A DNA stretch of 64,000 bases from Nannocystis sp. (GTDB lineage: Bacteria > Myxococcota_A > Polyangia > Nannocystales > Nannocystaceae). Of this stretch, positions 7,387-64,000 are shown one piece after another. The first letter of the stretch is position 1. Each line of letters begins with the position of its first letter. The notes beneath the pieces are model-generated. The model made no database searches and had not been told where the DNA came from. It worked only from the letters and a program-made list of their open reading frames with translations. The stretch lies in assembly GCF_016717175.1 (NCBI RefSeq), contig NZ_JADKFZ010000004.1; one strand, 5' to 3'. The position numbers and the translations under genes were made by a program.

Positions 7387-8238
7387 TCACTCGCCGACGA
7401 TCCACTCGACGCGGGTGCGGGTCGACGCCGCGGGATCGAGGTCGTCGTCGGCGACGCGCGCGGCGAGGGCCGGCAGCGCGGCGCGCAGGACCACGTCGCT
7501 GCGCCACGGCGGATTGACGACGATCATGCCGGAGCCGCCGAGGCCGTCGGCGTCGTCGAGGCGGGTGTAGAGCTCGAGCGCGAGGACCCGGCGGATCACC
7601 CCGTGCATGAGCGCCGCGTGCAGCTTGCCGCGGGCGACCGGGCCCTTGATCGGGTACCACAGCGCGAGGCAGCCGGTCGGCCAGCGCGCGTGCGCCGTGT
7701 GCAGCCCGGCCAGCGCCGCGGCGAACTCGTCCGGCCGCTCGAAGGGCGGGTCGATGAGCACCAGGCCGCGGCGCTCCTTCGGCGGCAGGAAGGCCTTGAT
7801 GCCCTCGTAGCCGTCGCGCCGGTGGACGGCGACCTGCGGGTCGCCGCGAAACTCGTCGTGCAGGGTCTCGACGTCCTTCATGTGCAGCTCGCACGCGATC
7901 ATGCGGTCGCCTGGGCGCAGCAGGGCGCGGACCACCCGCGGCGAGCCCGGGTACACGCGCAGCGCGCCGTCTGGGTTGCAGGCCTCGATCAGGCGCAGGA
8001 GGTCGGCGAGCGGCCCCGGCAAGCCCTGCGCCCCCCACAGCCGCGCGACGCCGCGCGCGTACTCACCTGTCCTTTGGGACATCTCGTGGGCGAGCTGGTA
8101 GCTGCCGGCGCCCGCGTGGGTGTCGAGGTAACAGAGCGGCGTCGGCTTGTCCTGCAGGCGGCGCACGAGGTGGACCAGCACGAGGTGCTTGAGCAGGTCG
8201 GCGGCGCCGCCGGCATGGTAGTGGTGGCGGTAATTCAT
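7387..8238 (-). CDS. rlmJ: 23S rRNA (adenine2030-N6)-methyltransferase RlmJ
   Basis: hallmark N-terminus MNYRHHYHAGG..DLLKH and DPPFE motif; start placed at internal ATG 8238. Confidence 0.8.
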   Translation of the reverse strand: MNYRHHYHAGGAADLLKHLVLVHLVRRLQDKPTPLCYLDTHAGAGSYQLAHEMSQRTGEYARGVARLWGAQGLPGPLADLLRLIEACNPDGALRVYPGSPRVVRALLRPGDRMIACELHMKDVETLHDEFRGDPQVAVHRRDGYEGIKAFLPPKERRGLVLIDPPFERPDEFAAALAGLHTAHARWPTGCLALWYPIKGPVARGKLHAALMHGVIRRVLALELYTRLDDADGLGGSGMIVVNPPWRSDVVLRAALPALAARVADDDLDPAASTRTRVEWIVGE

Positions 8239-8351
8239 CGGCGGCAGGCGGGCAGGGCGGCGCAGCATAGCGGATCGTGTGTGCGTCCGCGCCTGCGCCA
8301 CAGCGCCGCCGGCGCGGCCGAAACGGCGTATTGTTGCGCCGCCCTGCCCGC

Positions 8352-9389
8352 ATGACCGACTCCGCGAACCCTGCGCCGACGCCCGCGCCGATCCCCGAGA
8401 CGATCCTGGCCACGAGCGCGACGCCGGCGAGCTCCGCGACCTCGCTGCAAAGCCCGGCGCCGGTACGGGCGGTGCATGGCTGGCGGCGCCTGCCGATGAA
8501 CACCATGCGGCTGCTCCGCTTCACGCTGCGGGTGCTGTCGCATCTGAGCAAGAACCACGCGCTGCTGCTGGCCGGCGGGATCGCCTACAACGTGATGCTG
8601 TCGATCGTGCCGCTGCTGACGGTGCTGCTGGTGGTCCTGACCCGCCTGCTCGATCGCCAGCAGCTGCTCGACATCATCTCCACCGAGCTGGCGCTGCTCA
8701 TCCCGTCGCAGGCGCAGAGCATCACCGACCAGGTCGGCGCGCTGATCGACAACGCCGACATTATCGGCGGGGTCGGCATCCTCGTGCTGCTGTTCTTCAG
8801 CTCGTGGGCGTTCAAGATCCTCGAGGGCGCGCTGGCCATCGTGTTCGCGCGGACCAAGGCCCGGCGCGTGCGCGGCGTGTGGATGTCGTTGCTCATCCCG
8901 TACATCTGGATCCTGGTCCTCGGCGTCGGGCTGTTCGTGTTGACCGTCGTGGTCGGCTTCGTCGAGGCCGTCTCGGAGACCGATCTGCACCTGTTCGGCC
9001 GCATCGTCTCGCTCGGGGCCATGCCGGCGCTGATGCTCAAGCTCACCGGCTTCCTGACGCTGGTGGTCCTGTTCACCTCGATCTATCACGTGCTGCCGAT
9101 CTCCGAGGTCTCGTTCAAGCGGGCCCTGGCCGGCGGGCTCGCGGCGGCGATCCTGTGGGACATCCTGCGCCGCTTCCTGATGGTCTACTTCGCCAAGATC
9201 TCGCTGGTGAACACGGTCTACGGCTCGCTGGCCACGGTGATCATCGTCCTGCTCACGCTCGAGTTCGCGGCGCTCATCATCCTGTTCGGCGCGCAGGTCA
9301 TCTCGGAGATCCAGCACAGCGAGGAGGCCGGCCTGCCGTGGTACGAGGGCGTGCCCGTCGAAGAGGTCGTCGGCGTGCGCCAGGGCTAG
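8352..9389 (+). CDS. YihY/BrkB (virulence factor BrkB / RNase BN-like) family membrane protein
   Basis: multi-TM protein with GGIAYNVMLSIVPLL and YGSLATVIIVLL..FGAQV segments typical of YihY family. Confidence 0.8.
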   Translation: MTDSANPAPTPAPIPETILATSATPASSATSLQSPAPVRAVHGWRRLPMNTMRLLRFTLRVLSHLSKNHALLLAGGIAYNVMLSIVPLLTVLLVVLTRLLDRQQLLDIISTELALLIPSQAQSITDQVGALIDNADIIGGVGILVLLFFSSWAFKILEGALAIVFARTKARRVRGVWMSLLIPYIWILVLGVGLFVLTVVVGFVEAVSETDLHLFGRIVSLGAMPALMLKLTGFLTLVVLFTSIYHVLPISEVSFKRALAGGLAAAILWDILRRFLMVYFAKISLVNTVYGSLATVIIVLLTLEFAALIILFGAQVISEIQHSEEAGLPWYEGVPVEEVVGVRQG

Positions 9390-57819: not shown

Positions 57820-59658
57820 TCAGATCGCCGGTGTCGGGCTGGCGACCGCGCGCGCGGGCGCGGAGAAGGCGAGCTCGACGAGGCCCGGCAGCGGGGTCGC
57901 CTGCGGGTGCAGCTCCATGCGGCCGAGGCTGCGGTCCATGTCGCGGGCGATCGGTGACAGGCTGCGGCGGCGCTGGCCGCCCTCGGCCACCTGCGCGGCC
58001 AGGCGCTCGGGCGACGGGCGGCGCGGCCATTCGGCCAGGCCGACGGCCGCGGCCAGGTCGGCGCCCTGCGCCGGCCCGAGGGCGGCCAGCGCCCGCAGGA
58101 CCAGCTCGTCGAGCACCTCCTCGGTCCACGCGAGCTTCTCCTGCATGAATGCATGGACCTCGTCGGGGCTCATCTCGCGGGCGAGGTCGAGGTGGAGGTT
58201 GGCGAGGATCGAGGGGATCGTCGGCACCTTCACGTGCACCGGGCGGGGCAGGTCCGCTTCACCCGGGACGGCGCGCCGGGCCCACTGCGAGAGCAGCAGC
58301 TGGGCCCGCCGCTGCAGCGCGCCGAACTGGTCGGCCAGCGCCTCGAAGCGGCCGTGCTCGGCCGCGGGCAGCTTGTAGATGCGGCGAAAGAAGTACTGGC
58401 AGAGGAAGGACCAGTAGGTGAAGTCGTCCCAGTACACCTTCGCAGCCATCACCCGCGGGTTGCCGAGGACCGGCCCCGAGTCGCGGTAGATCTCGATCGT
58501 GGCGGCGAACATCTTGCGGTAGAAGCGATCGAAGCGGTCCGCCATCTCGGCCATCTCGGTGGTGTCGCCGCCGCGCAGGCGGGCCTTGAGCAGCTCCGTG
58601 GTGAACGAGTTGGCGACGGCGATGAAGTCGGAGCCCGGCGAGTAGAAGGGGTCGGCGAACACGCCGGCGTCGCCGATCAGCGACCAGCGGTCGGCCGAGA
58701 AGCAGCGCTTGCTGCCGTGGCTGTAGTGCTTGAGGCACAGGAAGTCCTCGGCCGGCAGGTCCTTGATCTGGGCGTGGCACAGCGGCTCGTGCTTGGCGAC
58801 CCACGCGAGCGAGCGCTCGAAGCTGCGGATCGTGTCGAAGGGGTGAAACTCGTCGTGGACGACGATGCCGATCGAGGTGTGGGCCTCGCCGCCCGGGCCC
58901 GGGGCGAGCGGGATGTACCACAGCCAGTAACCCGTCCCCATGAAGTGCACGGTCGAGTACCAGCGGTTGTGCTCGCGGTCGCGGTTGTGCCACCAGGCCT
59001 CGCTCGCGGGCACGAGGTCGGCGACGTCGACCCGGCCCTTGACCCGCCACCACGCCGCGTTGGCGAGGTGGCCGCTCGGGGTCTTGAGCCCGAGCTTGGT
59101 CTTGAGCAGCGCGCGGCGGCCGGTGGCGTCGACGAACCAGCCCGCGCGCAGGGTGCGGGTCGTGCCGTCGTGGGCCTCGATGTGGACGAGGTGGTCGTCG
59201 GCGCCGTCGCTGGCGAGGGTGACGTCCTTGACGCTGTGGCCCTCGAGCAGGGTGACGCCGTCGGCGACGTTCATGGCCCGCAGGTCGCCCTCGAGGCGGC
59301 CGCGGTCGAGCTGGAACGACGGCACCTTGGCCAGCTCGGGCGGGCCGATCTCGGTGCGCTGCTCGAGCGCCAGCGTGCGCCCGCCGCCGGGATAGAAGCG
59401 CAGGCCGTTCTTGAGGTAGTGGTGCGTGCGCAGGTACGCGTCGAGGCCGAGCACGACGCTGAAGTAGTTCGAGGACAGCTCGACCGAGGACTCGCCGACC
59501 TTGTGCGCCGCCGCCGGCAGCGGCCGGGCCTGACGCTCGATCACGGCGACCCGCGCCTCGGGCAGCTCACGCCGCAGCTGGCGCGCCAGGGCCTGCCCGG
59601 CCAGGCCGCCGCCGCCGATCACGACATCGAAGTGTTCGGGTGCTCGCTCGCTGTGCAT
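57820..59658 (-). CDS. flavin-dependent halogenase (tryptophan-halogenase family)
   Basis: GxGxxG FAD motif (VVIGGGGLAGQ) and the family signature WxWxIP (GTGYWLWYIPL); start at ATG 59658. Confidence 0.75.
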   Translation of the reverse strand: MHSERAPEHFDVVIGGGGLAGQALARQLRRELPEARVAVIERQARPLPAAAHKVGESSVELSSNYFSVVLGLDAYLRTHHYLKNGLRFYPGGGRTLALEQRTEIGPPELAKVPSFQLDRGRLEGDLRAMNVADGVTLLEGHSVKDVTLASDGADDHLVHIEAHDGTTRTLRAGWFVDATGRRALLKTKLGLKTPSGHLANAAWWRVKGRVDVADLVPASEAWWHNRDREHNRWYSTVHFMGTGYWLWYIPLAPGPGGEAHTSIGIVVHDEFHPFDTIRSFERSLAWVAKHEPLCHAQIKDLPAEDFLCLKHYSHGSKRCFSADRWSLIGDAGVFADPFYSPGSDFIAVANSFTTELLKARLRGGDTTEMAEMADRFDRFYRKMFAATIEIYRDSGPVLGNPRVMAAKVYWDDFTYWSFLCQYFFRRIYKLPAAEHGRFEALADQFGALQRRAQLLLSQWARRAVPGEADLPRPVHVKVPTIPSILANLHLDLAREMSPDEVHAFMQEKLAWTEEVLDELVLRALAALGPAQGADLAAAVGLAEWPRRPSPERLAAQVAEGGQRRRSLSPIARDMDRSLGRMELHPQATPLPGLVELAFSAPARAVASPTPAI

Positions 59659-59828
59659 GCCGCAAGTCCTCGCGCCGCGGGCCTCGTCGGCGCGGGCCAA
59701 GGATACGCAAGGTCGCCGCGTTTGCCCGCGCAAAGGTGTGCGTTCGCGCTCTGCGCAGCGCCCGGCCAATCTCCCTCCTGGCGCGCTGGACGTCGCCTCG
59801 CGCCCTCGTTACCATCCCGCACCCAAAA

Positions 59829-60089
59829 ATGACGCGCGCGGAAATTTCTCAGCGGGTGGTCGGCATCCTGGTCAAGACCTTCGAGCTCGACCCCGCCGAC
59901 ATTCACCCCGAATCTCGGCTCTACGAGGACCTCGACCTCGACAGCATCGACGCGGTCGACATGTTCGTCGAGCTGCACGAGATCACCGGGCGACGCATCG
60001 ACCCCGAGGTCGCCCGCAAGATCCGCACGGTCGACGACATCGTCGGCCTCGTCGAGTCCGAGCTGGCGAGCGCAGGCGCGGCATCCTGA
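59829..60089 (+). CDS. acyl carrier protein
   Basis: 86-aa four-helix pattern with phosphopantetheine-attachment DLDLDSIDAVDM motif. Confidence 0.8.
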   Translation: MTRAEISQRVVGILVKTFELDPADIHPESRLYEDLDLDSIDAVDMFVELHEITGRRIDPEVARKIRTVDDIVGLVESELASAGAAS

Positions 60090-60119
60090 GCGCGAGAGCT
60101 CCGCCAGCGCCCGTGCCCC

Positions 60120-60962
60120 GTGCCGAAGTTCCTCCGCATCCTGCTGTCCGCGTCGGCCTTCGCGGCGTTCTTCTTCACCGCCTCGGTGCTGGGTCGCCTG
60201 CTGCTGCCGATCGTGGTCCACTGGCCTGGCTCGCCGGAGCGGCGTCAGGCCCGGCGCCAGCGCCTGCTGCTGCTCTCGTACCGCAGCTTCATCGGCTACA
60301 TGCGGGCGCTGCGGCTGATCCACTTCACCCGGCCCGCGCTGCCCGCCGACCTGCCGCCCCCGGGTCAGCCCTACCTGCTGATCGCCAACCACCCCTCGCT
60401 GATCGACGTGCTGGTGCTGACGAGCCTGCTGCCAGGCCTGACCAGCGTGGCCAAGGCGTCGTGGTTTCGTTCGTGGCTGATGCGACCGCTGCTCGAGTAC
60501 GCCGGCTACATCCCCGGCGCCGACGACCGGGCGCTGCCCGAGGCGAGTGACGGCGAGTCCGGCGAGGACCGCAGCCCGGTGCTGCTGCGGATGGTCGAGC
60601 ACCTGCGCTCGGGTCATCCGCTGCTGGTGTTCCCGGAGGCCTCGCGCTCGCACGAGCGATCGCTGCGCCGGTTCCGTCGCGGCGCGATCGAGGCGGCGAT
60701 CCGCGCCGGCGTGCCGATCGTCCCGGCCTTCATCTCGGTGGTGCCGCCGATGCTGATGAAGCACCAGGCCTGGTACGACGTGCCGGCCCGCGGCGGGCGC
60801 TACACGGTCGAGTTCTTCCCGGTGATCACGACCGCGGGCCAAAGCCTCGACTCGCGCGTGCTGGCGCGGGAGCTGCGGGCCCGCTACGAGCAGCGCCACG
60901 CGCAGATGCTGGCCGAGCGCGACGCCCTCGCGGCCGCGAGCTCGCGCAAGGCGCTGGCCTGA
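60120..60962 (+). CDS. lysophospholipid acyltransferase (PlsC/LPLAT family)
   Basis: N-terminal TM; HX4D motif (ANHPSLIDV) and FPEASRS (FPEGTR-like) motif; GTG start. Confidence 0.8.
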   Translation: MPKFLRILLSASAFAAFFFTASVLGRLLLPIVVHWPGSPERRQARRQRLLLLSYRSFIGYMRALRLIHFTRPALPADLPPPGQPYLLIANHPSLIDVLVLTSLLPGLTSVAKASWFRSWLMRPLLEYAGYIPGADDRALPEASDGESGEDRSPVLLRMVEHLRSGHPLLVFPEASRSHERSLRRFRRGAIEAAIRAGVPIVPAFISVVPPMLMKHQAWYDVPARGGRYTVEFFPVITTAGQSLDSRVLARELRARYEQRHAQMLAERDALAAASSRKALA

Positions 60963-61068
60963 GCCGTAACCTGAGCCGTGGCCTCGAGCTGTGCGCCCGA
61001 GCTGTGCGTCTTTGCCGGGGCCGCGGATCGCGTTGACATTGCCGACGCGCTCCGCGAGCCTCCACCCC

Positions 61069-62460
61069 ATGAGCGAGCGCTTCGATGTCGTGATCGTGGG
61101 GGCCGGGCTCTCGGGGGTCGGCGCGGCGTGCCATCTGAGGCGCTCGTGCCCGGGCAAGTCCTTCGTGCTGCTCGAGGGCCGCGAGGCGATCGGCGGCACC
61201 TGGGACCTGTTTCGTTACCCGGGGATCCGCTCCGACTCGGACATGTACACCTTCGGCTACGCGTTCGAGCCGTGGAAGGGGGACAAGGCGCTGGCCGACG
61301 GCCCGGCGATCCGCGCCTATGTGCAGGCCACGGCCCGCAAGTACGACGTCGACACGCAGGTGCGCTTCGGCCACCGCGTGACGCGGCTGTCGTGGTCGAG
61401 CGTCGACGCCGAGTGGACGATCGAGGTGACCCGCAGCGACGGCAGCAGCGCCCGCTTCACCGCCGGCTTCGTGTGGATGTGCACCGGCTACTACCGCTAC
61501 GACGCCGGCCACACGCCGGAATTCGCGGGCCGCGAGCGCTTCCGCGGGCGCATCGTCCACCCGCAGCACTGGCCCGAGGACCTCGACTACAGCGGCCAGC
61601 GGGTGGTCGTGATCGGCAGCGGGGCGACGGCGGTGACGCTGGTGCCGGCGATGGCCGGACGCGCCGCGCACGTGACCATGCTGCAGCGCTCGCCGAGCTA
61701 TGTGCTGTCGCGGCCGGCGACCGACGCGGTGGCCCGGGGTCTGCGGCGGGTGCTCCCGGAGCGCGTCGCGTACGCGCTGTCGCGCTGGAAGAACGTGGCC
61801 CTGGCGACGCTGCTGTACCAGCTGTCGCGGCGGCGCCCCGCGGGCATGAAGCGCTTCCTCATCGACCAGGTGCAGCGCGCGCTCGGCCCGGATTACCCCG
61901 TCGATCCGGACTTCACCCCGCGCTACGACCCGTGGGATCAGCGCCTGTGCCTGGTCCCGGAGAACGACCTGTTCGTGGCGATCCGCGAGGGCAAGGCCGA
62001 TGTCGTCACGGACACGGTCGAGTGCTTCACCGAGACGGGGATCCGCCTCGGCTCCGGCGCCGAGCTGCCGGCCGATCTGGTGGTGACCGCGACCGGGCTC
62101 GAGCTGCTGTTCCTCGGCGGCAGCGAGCTGGTGGTCGACGGGCGCACGATCGATGTGGCGGCCGAGATGAGCTTCAAGGGCATGATGCTGAGCGGTGTGC
62201 CCAACCTGGCGTTCACGGTCGGCTACACCAACGCGTCGTGGACGCTGCGCGCTGATCTGGTCGCGGAGCACGTGTGCCGATTGCTGCACCACATGGATCG
62301 GGTCGGGGCGCGCAAGGTGGTGCCGCGGCGCGGCGCCGACCCGGTGCTCACGCCGCTGATGGACCTCAGCTCCGGCTATGTTCAGCGGGCCCTCGATCGC
62401 TTCCCGAAGCAGGGGGCGAAGAACCCGTGGCGGGTCCGCCAGAACTACTTCGCGGACTAG
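61069..62460 (+). CDS. flavin-containing (class B, FMO/BVMO-like) monooxygenase
   Basis: FAD GAGLSG, GGTW, NADPH GxGxxA (VIGSGATA) motifs. Confidence 0.85.
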   Translation: MSERFDVVIVGAGLSGVGAACHLRRSCPGKSFVLLEGREAIGGTWDLFRYPGIRSDSDMYTFGYAFEPWKGDKALADGPAIRAYVQATARKYDVDTQVRFGHRVTRLSWSSVDAEWTIEVTRSDGSSARFTAGFVWMCTGYYRYDAGHTPEFAGRERFRGRIVHPQHWPEDLDYSGQRVVVIGSGATAVTLVPAMAGRAAHVTMLQRSPSYVLSRPATDAVARGLRRVLPERVAYALSRWKNVALATLLYQLSRRRPAGMKRFLIDQVQRALGPDYPVDPDFTPRYDPWDQRLCLVPENDLFVAIREGKADVVTDTVECFTETGIRLGSGAELPADLVVTATGLELLFLGGSELVVDGRTIDVAAEMSFKGMMLSGVPNLAFTVGYTNASWTLRADLVAEHVCRLLHHMDRVGARKVVPRRGADPVLTPLMDLSSGYVQRALDRFPKQGAKNPWRVRQNYFAD

Positions 62461-62546
62461 CGCGGAGGACGTCGCACGGGTCGGTGCGGTCCGGCTGGGC
62501 GTCCGCGGAGGCTCGAGAAGCCGGATGTCCGAGAGGGGGGTCGCCC

Positions 62547-62713
62547 TCAAACACGGCCTGACACACCGTCGCCGGGGTGATATCCGGGTCTACGCCGGAC
62601 TCGGTCGACCCCCCTCTCGGCCCTCCGGCAAGTGAAGCCTCCGCTCAAGGACGGTGCGGTCGGCCTCGCCGAAAGCCGGACCGCACCGGCCCTGAGGGCG
62701 CGACATGGCTGCA
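62547..62713. repeat. left copy of ~170-bp inverted repeat flanking the Cys-rich gene
   Basis: reverse complement of 63832-64000 at ~92% identity; contains GGTGCGGTC...GACCGCACC hairpin. Confidence 0.85.
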
Positions 62714-62763
62714 TAGACATGTCCCTTACGACATGCGGCCCGTGGCCCGCGGTTGGAATCACG

Positions 62764-63766
62764 TCATAAAGGGATAGCGCAGACGCCCACGTGCTTGAAG
62801 CCAAACGGGTTCGGGTCGAACCATTGCACACATGTTTGGTCAGGGTTTGGGCAGGGGTCCATCCTCGTCAAGTCGCAGTAGGGCTGGCAGCAGCCCTGGG
62901 AGCCCTGCATGCACGCGCTCGAGGCGCTGGCGGTGTCGATGCAGACGAGGCCCTTGTCGCAGGCGTTGGGGAGGTCGCAGGGGTCGTTGATCTGGCCCAT
63001 GTCGCCCGAGGCTTCGACGCACTTTACGCTCCCGTCGATGATGAGGCACAACTCGTCGCCGGGGCAGTCCTGAAGCAGCGGATTGCGGACCGGTAGGCAG
63101 AGGTTCAGCACGCTGTCGCCGAAGATGTGACACGAGAGGTCACCGTCGCAGATCGGGGCGTCAGGGGTGCCTGTGCAAAAGGCGACGCAGTGGCCCATGT
63201 TCATGTTGTTGACGTCGACGGCCCAGCACATCGCACCCGCTTCGCAGTTGTCGATGCCGCTGACACCGCTGCCCTCGGCCGTGCAGATGTCGCCGGGGAC
63301 CTTGTCACCCGTCACCGGGACACATTTGGTGGCGTTCCAGTTCCCGCCGCCATCGTCGGCCCACACGGTGCACTTCTCGCCGGGAGCGCAGTCCTGCTTG
63401 TACACGTCGCATTTGATCGTGCCACCATTGTCAAAATCATGGCCGGTGATGAAGCCGCTGGGATAGTCGCTGGTCGAGCACGCGGTATCGCAGGGGCCCG
63501 TGCTGCTGGTGCTTGTGGGTGTTCCGATCGTCGGGGCGCTGGCCTCGGTGCTGCTTGTGGCTGGTGGTGGTGGTGCTGCTGCTGCCGCTGCTGCCGCCCT
63601 CCGTGGTCTGCGGCTTCGTGGGGCCGCAGGCGAGCAGCATGGCGACACCCAGGCCCAAAGCTGCGATCGCGACCGGGGCGGGGGCGTCGAGCAATTCGAC
63701 GCCGCAGATCGGGCAGCGCGCCTCCACGCGGCGGACGAGACGGTGGCAGCGATGACACGTTCTCAT
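62764..63766 (-). CDS. cysteine-rich repeat secreted lipoprotein; N-terminal signal/lipobox in a different frame from the Cys-rich body (apparent frameshift in SSSTTTT linker ~63560-63600)
   Basis: frame ending 63766 gives MLLACGPTKP lipobox; frame ending 63648 gives more than 35 Cys body; frames switch within ACC/AGC homopolymeric codon repeats. Confidence 0.5.
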
Positions 63767-63831
63767 CGCTGCACGCTATCAGTGCGCACACGTTCTGGGC
63801 AGCGTCGCCGGCGAGGGCGGTACGCTGGCCG

Positions 63832-64000
63832 TGCAGCCATGTCGCGCCCTCAGGGCTGGTGCGGTCCGGCGCTCGGCGAGGCCGACCGCACCGTCCTTTA
63901 GCGGAGGCTTCGCTTGCCGGAGGGCCGGAAGAGGCCTCGACCGAGTCCGGCGTAGACCCGGATTTCACCCCGGCGACGGTTTGTCAGGCCGTGTTTGAGG
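63832..64000. repeat. right copy of inverted repeat (truncated by window end)
   Basis: reverse complement matches 62547-62713. Confidence 0.85.

Follow-up and report, generated by a model that had tools for sequence, protein, structure and literature searches.

REP, BIME and REPIN sequences of Proteobacteria, which are associated with RAYT transposases, are extragenic imperfect palindromes, located at the 3' ends of genes or between cistrons, which occur as inverted doublets and in mosaic clusters, carry compensated stems and can stabilise the upstream mRNA. The bacterial MITE-like repeats Correia/NEMIS, ERIC, RUP and BOX are co-transcribed with neighbouring genes, and the repeat described here resembles them in being a non-coding sequence in the range 100-300 nt, with long terminal inverted repeats and hairpin folding, and in occurring, like BOX, as modular and length variants. 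Myxobacteria have large genomes with many lineage-specific genes, yet hardly any of their small repeat families have been described, and a search of the literature for MITE or REP elements in myxobacteria found nothing. For Nannocystis exedens, multi-copy, hairpin-forming, msDNA-like repeats that lack an adjacent reverse transcriptase (RT) have been reported (Lampson & Rice 1997; Retron-Nex1/Ne160; as described in PMC6868368).

Our insights into a further repeat of this genus come from a 64,000-nt stretch of DNA from a Nannocystis sp., referred to below as the window, at the right-hand end of which two inverted arms enclose a gene for a cysteine-rich putative lipoprotein. Both arms are copies of a structured intergenic repeat whose family is restricted to one lineage and has not been described before. 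An inverted-repeat search of the window locates them at 62545-62713 and 63832-64000, each 169 nt long and 93% complementary to the other, with 1118 nt between them. In a gap-free global alignment 157 of the 169 positions are identical, exact runs of 25-27 nt are shared, and comparing one arm with the other by within-window blastn yields E = 2e-69, so that their similarity is far beyond chance. Arms of about 170 bp around a single gene had been described in an earlier note on this DNA, and both the arms and the enclosure of one minus-strand gene only (62764-63766) are borne out; the substitutions between the arms are also real, but they number 12 and not the 13 or so that had been counted. Inspection of these 12 mismatches revealed no DGR-like adenine-specific differences, and a DGR origin of the differences was rejected on this basis. 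The strong hairpin CGGTGCGGTCGGC...GCCGGACCGCACCG, said to retain its stem while its loop differs, was found at 62652-62689 (plus strand), with an identical stem in the left and right copies and loops of GAAAG and GAGCG. It corresponds to inverted repeat I11, lies within the 3' arm of the larger structure described below and takes part there in helix 8 and in an alternative pairing with the 5' arm.

The arm itself is not the repeat unit, as had been assumed. The unit is longer, and the left arm takes up no more than the 3' two-thirds of a complete long-form copy, about 276 nt in length, at 62460-62735 on the plus strand (nhmmer 1.8e-90), where homology to 15 or more copies starts and stops. 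The first base of this copy is also the third base of the stop codon of a flavin monooxygenase-like (FMO) gene, and the copy ends in ...GACATG. The 5' arm of its rod-like fold (62478-62546, plus strand) falls outside the arm described earlier and pairs with 62603-62692, as seen from inverted repeats I2 and I7, direct repeat D9 and the MFE structure; within it, GGTGCGGTCCGGC is predicted to compete with 62653-62664 for pairing to 62676-62689. There follow, all on the plus strand, the 5' half of a variable stem of type A, CCGAGAGGGGGGTCG (62529-62543, alignment columns 72-86), a nearly invariant apical domain of three small hairpins (62544-62605), most columns of which are invariant in 18-20 copies, the 3' half of the variable stem, CGACCCCCCTCTCGG (62606-62620, alignment columns 150-164), and a 3' terminal module (62697-62735) in which alignment of the copies defines two GCGACATG motifs and a CATGTC/GACATG hairpin. 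The right copy (63832-64000, minus strand; nhmmer 6.2e-54) carries a variable stem of type B, CGAGGCCTCTTCC, and lies 66 nt upstream of the ATG of the cysteine-rich gene. It is cut by the window edge, as the earlier note had observed, and its extension past position 64000 could be followed in an orthologous metagenomic contig (L016), where it runs about 83-95 nt further and is complete at L016 1212-1463.

Across the family the unit measures about 245-280 nt and has the termini GACGTCGCAC...GCGCGACATG. Short-form copies stop after the first GACATG, at GCGCGACATG, while long-form copies carry an extra module of about 36 nt ending in the second GCGACATG. Many copies are preceded on their 5' side by one to four tandem partial units of about 39 nt, a sub-unit which carries the small hairpin CACGGGCCGGTGCGGTCCGG, is tandemly repeated and does not contain GTAG; at loci L005 and L008 these partial units include flanking sequence with the stop codon. 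At L008 (3206-3349) the array derived from the repeat 5' end amounts to 3.7 copies of the 39-nt unit, and in its first two units the upstream stop codon and flank (GGGCTAGTCAT) replace GGAGGACGTCG. A further module of about 50-150 nt was seen 3' of some copies (L007 7082-7135, L008 3587-3708 and L010 3201-3355) and, since such extra modules are common to subsets of loci, the family is mosaic in the manner of BIME or BOX elements.

The earlier note had proposed looking for the unit elsewhere and had raised the possibility of a MITE-like element. An exact scan of a collection of species-representative genomes with a 21-mer from the repeat matched 13 sites on six contigs of a single metagenome-assembled genome, Nannocystis sp. 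MAG EsbW_18-Q3-R4-48_MAXAC.145 (JADJNN01); four other matches shared only 21-24 nt and are chance matches, and the genuine matches of this exact scan were confined to contigs of that one MAG. A related 21-mer detected five contigs of one JGI metagenome, and the plasmid and phage collections yielded no repeat match. The MAG carries at least 15 copies on its six contigs, with an estimate of about 15-20 per genome, and 15 or more copies show full-length homology at 87-97% identity, in agreement with the view that the arms are copies of a structured, multi-copy repeat. Within the 64-kb window only two copies were found, both by a profile search and by an unfiltered covariance model of the 116-nt core, the latter being the kind of model whose use on the copies had been recommended. 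The L016 contig is orthologous to window 62618-64000 with 95.7% identity and extends 735 nt beyond the window end, and L018, a contig from the same JGI metagenome, is orthologous to L009 1-1243 of the MAG with 95.3% identity, including the repeat that follows an MFS gene. These two values indicate, indirectly, that the window organism is probably close to the species cluster of the MAG.

A simple local inverted duplication, to which the occurrence of two copies within 1.4 kb might point, had been offered as the explanation should the unit prove absent from the rest of the genome. It is ruled out by the presence of at least 15 further copies elsewhere, and we attach practically no weight to it. 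Moreover, the two window copies are not the products of a local duplication because their stem types differ, type A on the left and type B on the right, and because the left copy is closer to a distant MAG copy at L011 (97% identity) than to its neighbour (93%).

Folding of the left copy yields a rod-like hairpin of -166.5 kcal/mol (z = -6.0), and both strands fold equally well, with z about -6 for each. In an alignment of 20 copies (A1) the rod comprises 97 pairs and 91% of the cells are paired, values which none of 500 shuffles matched; when, as a control, the pairing partners were slid, paired cells fell to 32-45%. Helices 2-4 are 81-97% paired over the 20 copies, and helix 5 (24 bp) has 99.1% of its cells paired with 13 pairs changed on both sides, including pair types such as AU:9/GC:9 and GC:11/UA:4/CG:3. 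A stem of 11-15 bp differs in sequence among the copies yet stays complementary, with types that include GAGAGGGGGGTCG, GGAAGAGGCCTCG, GGAGGGCCTCTCG and GGAAGCGGCCTCG, while the tip, of about 60 nt, is nearly invariant and the basal arms of the rod and their bulges are conserved. The changes are compensatory base-pair changes and not codon-like, and the arms have no Pfam match, both in accord with the earlier opinion that they are unlikely to be protein-coding. G-U pairs are almost lacking from the variable stem and, for the whole structure, 26 G-U cells compare with 57 A-C cells; neither strand is favoured by these counts or by the alifold energies, and consequently the structure is not assignable to RNA of one strand as opposed to DNA. 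The near-invariance of the apical domain implies a sequence-specific partner, which a plain stabilising hairpin would not need.

A strongly conserved structure with covariation could also belong to a retron-like system, in which an RT encoded far away would act on an msr-msd-type non-coding RNA and the copies would be the templates or remnants of that RNA, as has been proposed for the repeated msDNA-like sequences of N. exedens, or to some other trans-acting structured RNA. The 19-bp outer helix resembles the a1/a2 repeats of retrons and encloses an inner hairpin of about 158 nt, and, in two of the three orthologous comparisons, the copy has changed less than synonymous sites (see below). The repeats share with those described for N. 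exedens (PMC6868368) the genus and the occurrence of multi-copy hairpins without an adjacent RT. We nevertheless hold this explanation to be improbable. The whole unit is a symmetric rod, which does not fit an msr plus msd layout because no space is left for a msr domain of its own. The two strands are also equal in folding, and a scan for sigma-70 promoters and intrinsic terminators found nothing inside the repeats. The genes directly downstream of the copies are the cysteine-rich gene and others, in place of the RT expected there, and a rough screen for the motifs NAxxH, YxDD and VTG within a single frame detected no retron-type RT in the loci examined. An Rfam cmscan of window 62300-64000 at E values up to 10 gave no relevant match, the best scores being 11-16 bits against gathering thresholds of 75-178, and the matches to the repeat in the exact species-representative scan were restricted to the one Nannocystis MAG.

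Flanking genes were called by codon-position G+C and checked with Pfam. All copies are intergenic. For 17 of 19, a gene in the same orientation ends 0-133 nt before the copy, as counted from its stop codon (p = 7e-4); the exceptions are at L015 and L003. Where genes are arranged in tandem, the start codon of the second gene follows 49-126 nt after the copy. At L008 and L012 two neighbouring copies point in opposite directions and each is found behind a gene of its own, so that copy orientation tracks transcription and not the direction of replication.

Inward-facing pairs, with the 5' ends outermost, occur four times in the MAG and once in the window. The MAG pairs are separated by 122 nt (L008), 212 nt (L012), 1.5 kb (L010) and 4.2 kb (L009); the first two enclose no gene, the third encloses a 169-aa ORF and the fourth a Metallophos-nSTAND6-TPR protein. 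The latter, encoded at L009 1735-5262, is a protein of 1175 aa with Metallophos, nSTAND6 NTPase and TPR regions, and its gene is the sole one within that pair. Inverted solo 5' units are present at L011. The four pairs within 5 kb seen in the MAG compare with about 0.2 expected at about 17-20 copies per genome, an enrichment over chance which holds for copy numbers up to 40, and the after-stop-codon rule alone does not explain the excess.

Recurrent pairs in excess of chance (if there are at most 40 copies) could denote a composite or gene-capture cassette, in which inward-facing copies and the enclosed gene form a mobile or recombination-delimited unit and the cysteine-rich gene arrived together with its brackets, the more so as the enclosed genes look accessory and the outer genes are ordinary convergent ones. 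Several observations, however, render this unlikely: no direct repeats flank the pair, two of the pairs enclose no gene, the two window copies are of different subtypes, and homologues of the cysteine-rich gene (67-76% identity, at loci L027, L028 and L030) occur in other contexts without the repeat. Furthermore, among the loci compared there was no empty FMO/methyltransferase site. Candidates rejected as empty sites, because they have different neighbourhoods and no repeat, were the FMO homologue loci L021-L025 and the three cysteine-rich homologue loci, and an N. pusilla acyltransferase homologue was not syntenic, belonging to an aryl-polyene-like cluster without an FMO gene.

The window locus itself conforms to the placement seen for the family as a whole. 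Beyond the right copy, the L016 contig carries the 3' end of an O-methyltransferase gene, which the right copy follows on the minus strand. The FMO gene (plus strand) and the O-methyltransferase gene (minus strand, beyond the window) therefore converge and each is followed by a copy; with the cysteine-rich gene between these two copies, they take on the appearance of brackets. The bracketing of this gene follows from the placement of copies after convergent genes together with the tendency to form inward-facing pairs. The FMO gene is the last member of a cluster at window 57820-62460 that also encodes a halogenase-like flavoenzyme, an acyl carrier protein and a lysophospholipid-type acyltransferase, with the O-methyltransferase situated past the window end.

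The cysteine-rich gene (62764-63766, minus strand) is recognised by an N-terminal CxxC..CxxC, a transmembrane segment and an LLAC lipobox, and it is split into two ORFs in different frames. DNA alignment with L016, where the orthologue is intact and encodes 332 aa, attributes this to a frameshift of +4 nt within an (AGC/ACC)n Ser/Thr linker at about 63560-63590, which could reflect either a pseudogene or an assembly error. The protein is one of a large family of Nannocystis paralogues, in which no Pfam domain was recognised.

A single, surface-protein-like gene flanked by at least 169 nt of inverted homology, 93% identical and with exact runs of 25-27 nt, is an arrangement in which recombination between the arms might flip the gene and produce phase variation, and an invertible segment was among the possibilities previously listed. 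We consider this very improbable. A Pfam scan revealed no invertase, recombinase or transposase within 18 kb to the left of the repeats, and L016 is collinear with the window across both junctions, with the gene in the same orientation. An inversion would turn the gene and the 66 nt upstream of it as one piece, which provides no ON/OFF logic. The arms, moreover, are ordinary family members with different stem types that obey the family-wide placement rule, and the same arrangement surrounds unrelated genes or none.

Comparison of orthologous sites indicates how individual copies behave. A comparison of the window with L026 shows 2 differences in 244 positions (0.8%) of the left repeat as against 11.7% at FMO third codon positions (p = 1e-8), and between L018 and its MAG orthologue L009 the repeat differs by 2.6% as against 9.2% at third codon positions of the adjacent gene (p = 0.002). 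For the right copy, comparison with the orthologue in L016 gives 13 differences in 175 positions (7.4%), among them a switch of stem type, while its flanks are 100% (spacer) and 97.5% (coding sequence) identical, which suggests that the right copy has been replaced by another family member. Together, these values suggest that the copies are under constraint, are homogenised with one another, or both, and that a copy is occasionally replaced. All three orthologous comparisons concern filled sites, no empty site was encountered among the loci compared, and at 20 junctions there was no consistent flanking direct repeat that would represent a target-site duplication, the duplicated flanks at L005 and L008 being part of the tandem partial units. 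No parent element with the same ends was found in the loci examined, and the Pfam-scanned flanking genes at the repeat loci included no transposase. We infer the mobility of the family from the dispersal of its copies.

The 5' end of the repeat shows signs of instability, in the form both of the tandem partial units of about 39 nt and of a deletion that ends at its first base. The FMO gene of the window (61069-62460, plus strand; Pfam FMO-like) lacks its last 24 or so codons, although all FMO homologues continue ...YLLLRLARVDDPALEF. Relative to L026 there is an apparent deletion of 83 nt (L026 1465-1547; window 62459-62460), whose right-hand boundary coincides with the first base of the repeat and which joins the codon GAC and TA to the first G of the repeat, creating a TAG stop with loss of the conserved C-terminal codons, about 24 in number. 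As seen in the assembled sequence, this deletion and the frameshift in the cysteine-rich gene may be either real lesions or assembly errors.

The explanation that we favour, and regard as fairly probable, is that the arms are members of a dispersed, non-coding hairpin repeat family of about 245-280 nt, located after stop codons in one Nannocystis species cluster and behaving like REP/BIME/REPIN or MITE sequences. Each copy is an imperfect long palindrome and could adopt the rod shape either as DNA or as RNA transcribed from one or the other strand. Copies lie in intergenic DNA right behind a stop codon, in the orientation of the preceding gene, and convergent genes often have an inward-facing pair between them. 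The family is presumably non-autonomous, of the REP/BIME/REPIN or the MITE type, and may spread and be homogenised through recombination or by a trans-acting enzyme, while the 5' end of the repeat would be prone to slippage and to adjacent deletion. If co-transcribed with the upstream gene, the rod would form a 3' or intercistronic RNA hairpin that might protect the end or act in termination. Both this mechanism of spread and the function in RNA are features that we infer from the structure and placement of the copies.

Comparison with the described families reveals both parallels and differences. The Nannocystis repeat is like REP/BIME/REPIN sequences in being extragenic, in its location at gene 3' ends and between cistrons, in forming inverted doublets and mosaic clusters with tandem sub-units, and in its compensated stems. 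It differs in the size of the unit, about 276 nt as against 20-40 nt for REP and about 100 nt for REPIN, in copy number, about 15-20 where REP and REPIN number hundreds, in the absence of the GTAG-type 5' motif of REP, and in its strong orientation rule relative to the upstream gene; no RAYT was found in the loci examined. The terminal inverted repeats of MITEs have their counterpart in the pairing of the 5' arm with the 3' arm. Unlike bacterial MITEs, the repeat yielded no target-site duplication or parent IS at the junctions and loci compared, and it combines a central stem that is hypervariable yet complementary with a near-invariant apical domain.

The presence of a conserved structure with bulges around a sequence-variable paired stem also recalls integron attC sites. 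Inspection of the termini, however, showed no RYYYAAC/GTTRRRY core sites, and, unlike attC sites with their same-orientation arrays, the copies are scattered over six contigs, in many cases in inverted orientation; nor was an integrase intI present among the Pfam-scanned flanking genes. A more speculative proposal, to which we assign a low probability, is that the repeats are the cis-acting ends of a recombination- or RT-based gene-capture system, with the pairs as landing pads for single accessory genes (the cysteine-rich lipoprotein, the STAND NTPase and the small ORF). The variable stem would then be a specificity determinant in a folded single strand, as in attC or retron msd, and the tip an enzyme-binding site.

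On the favoured explanation of a dispersed hairpin family, the combination of a defined structure of about 276 nt, a clear rule of placement, indications that copies are constrained or homogenised, and damage to the adjoining sequence, exemplified by the truncated FMO gene, provides a tractable case for studying the spread of palindromes, the shaping of 3' ends and operons at very high G+C content and the seeding of gene insertion by inverted pairs. The family also has a bearing on genome annotation, since the repeat gives rise to spurious ORFs, causes short-read contigs to break and can be mistaken for an invertible segment or a cassette.

In the search with the 116-nt core model, a match at window 8234-8363 (31.9 bits) was rejected as an unrelated inverted repeat with a sequence unlike that of the repeat family. 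A perfect 17-bp inverted repeat, GCGGGCAGGGCGGCGCA, is located there at 8248-8264 and 8335-8351, with a 70-nt spacer, in a divergent promoter region.
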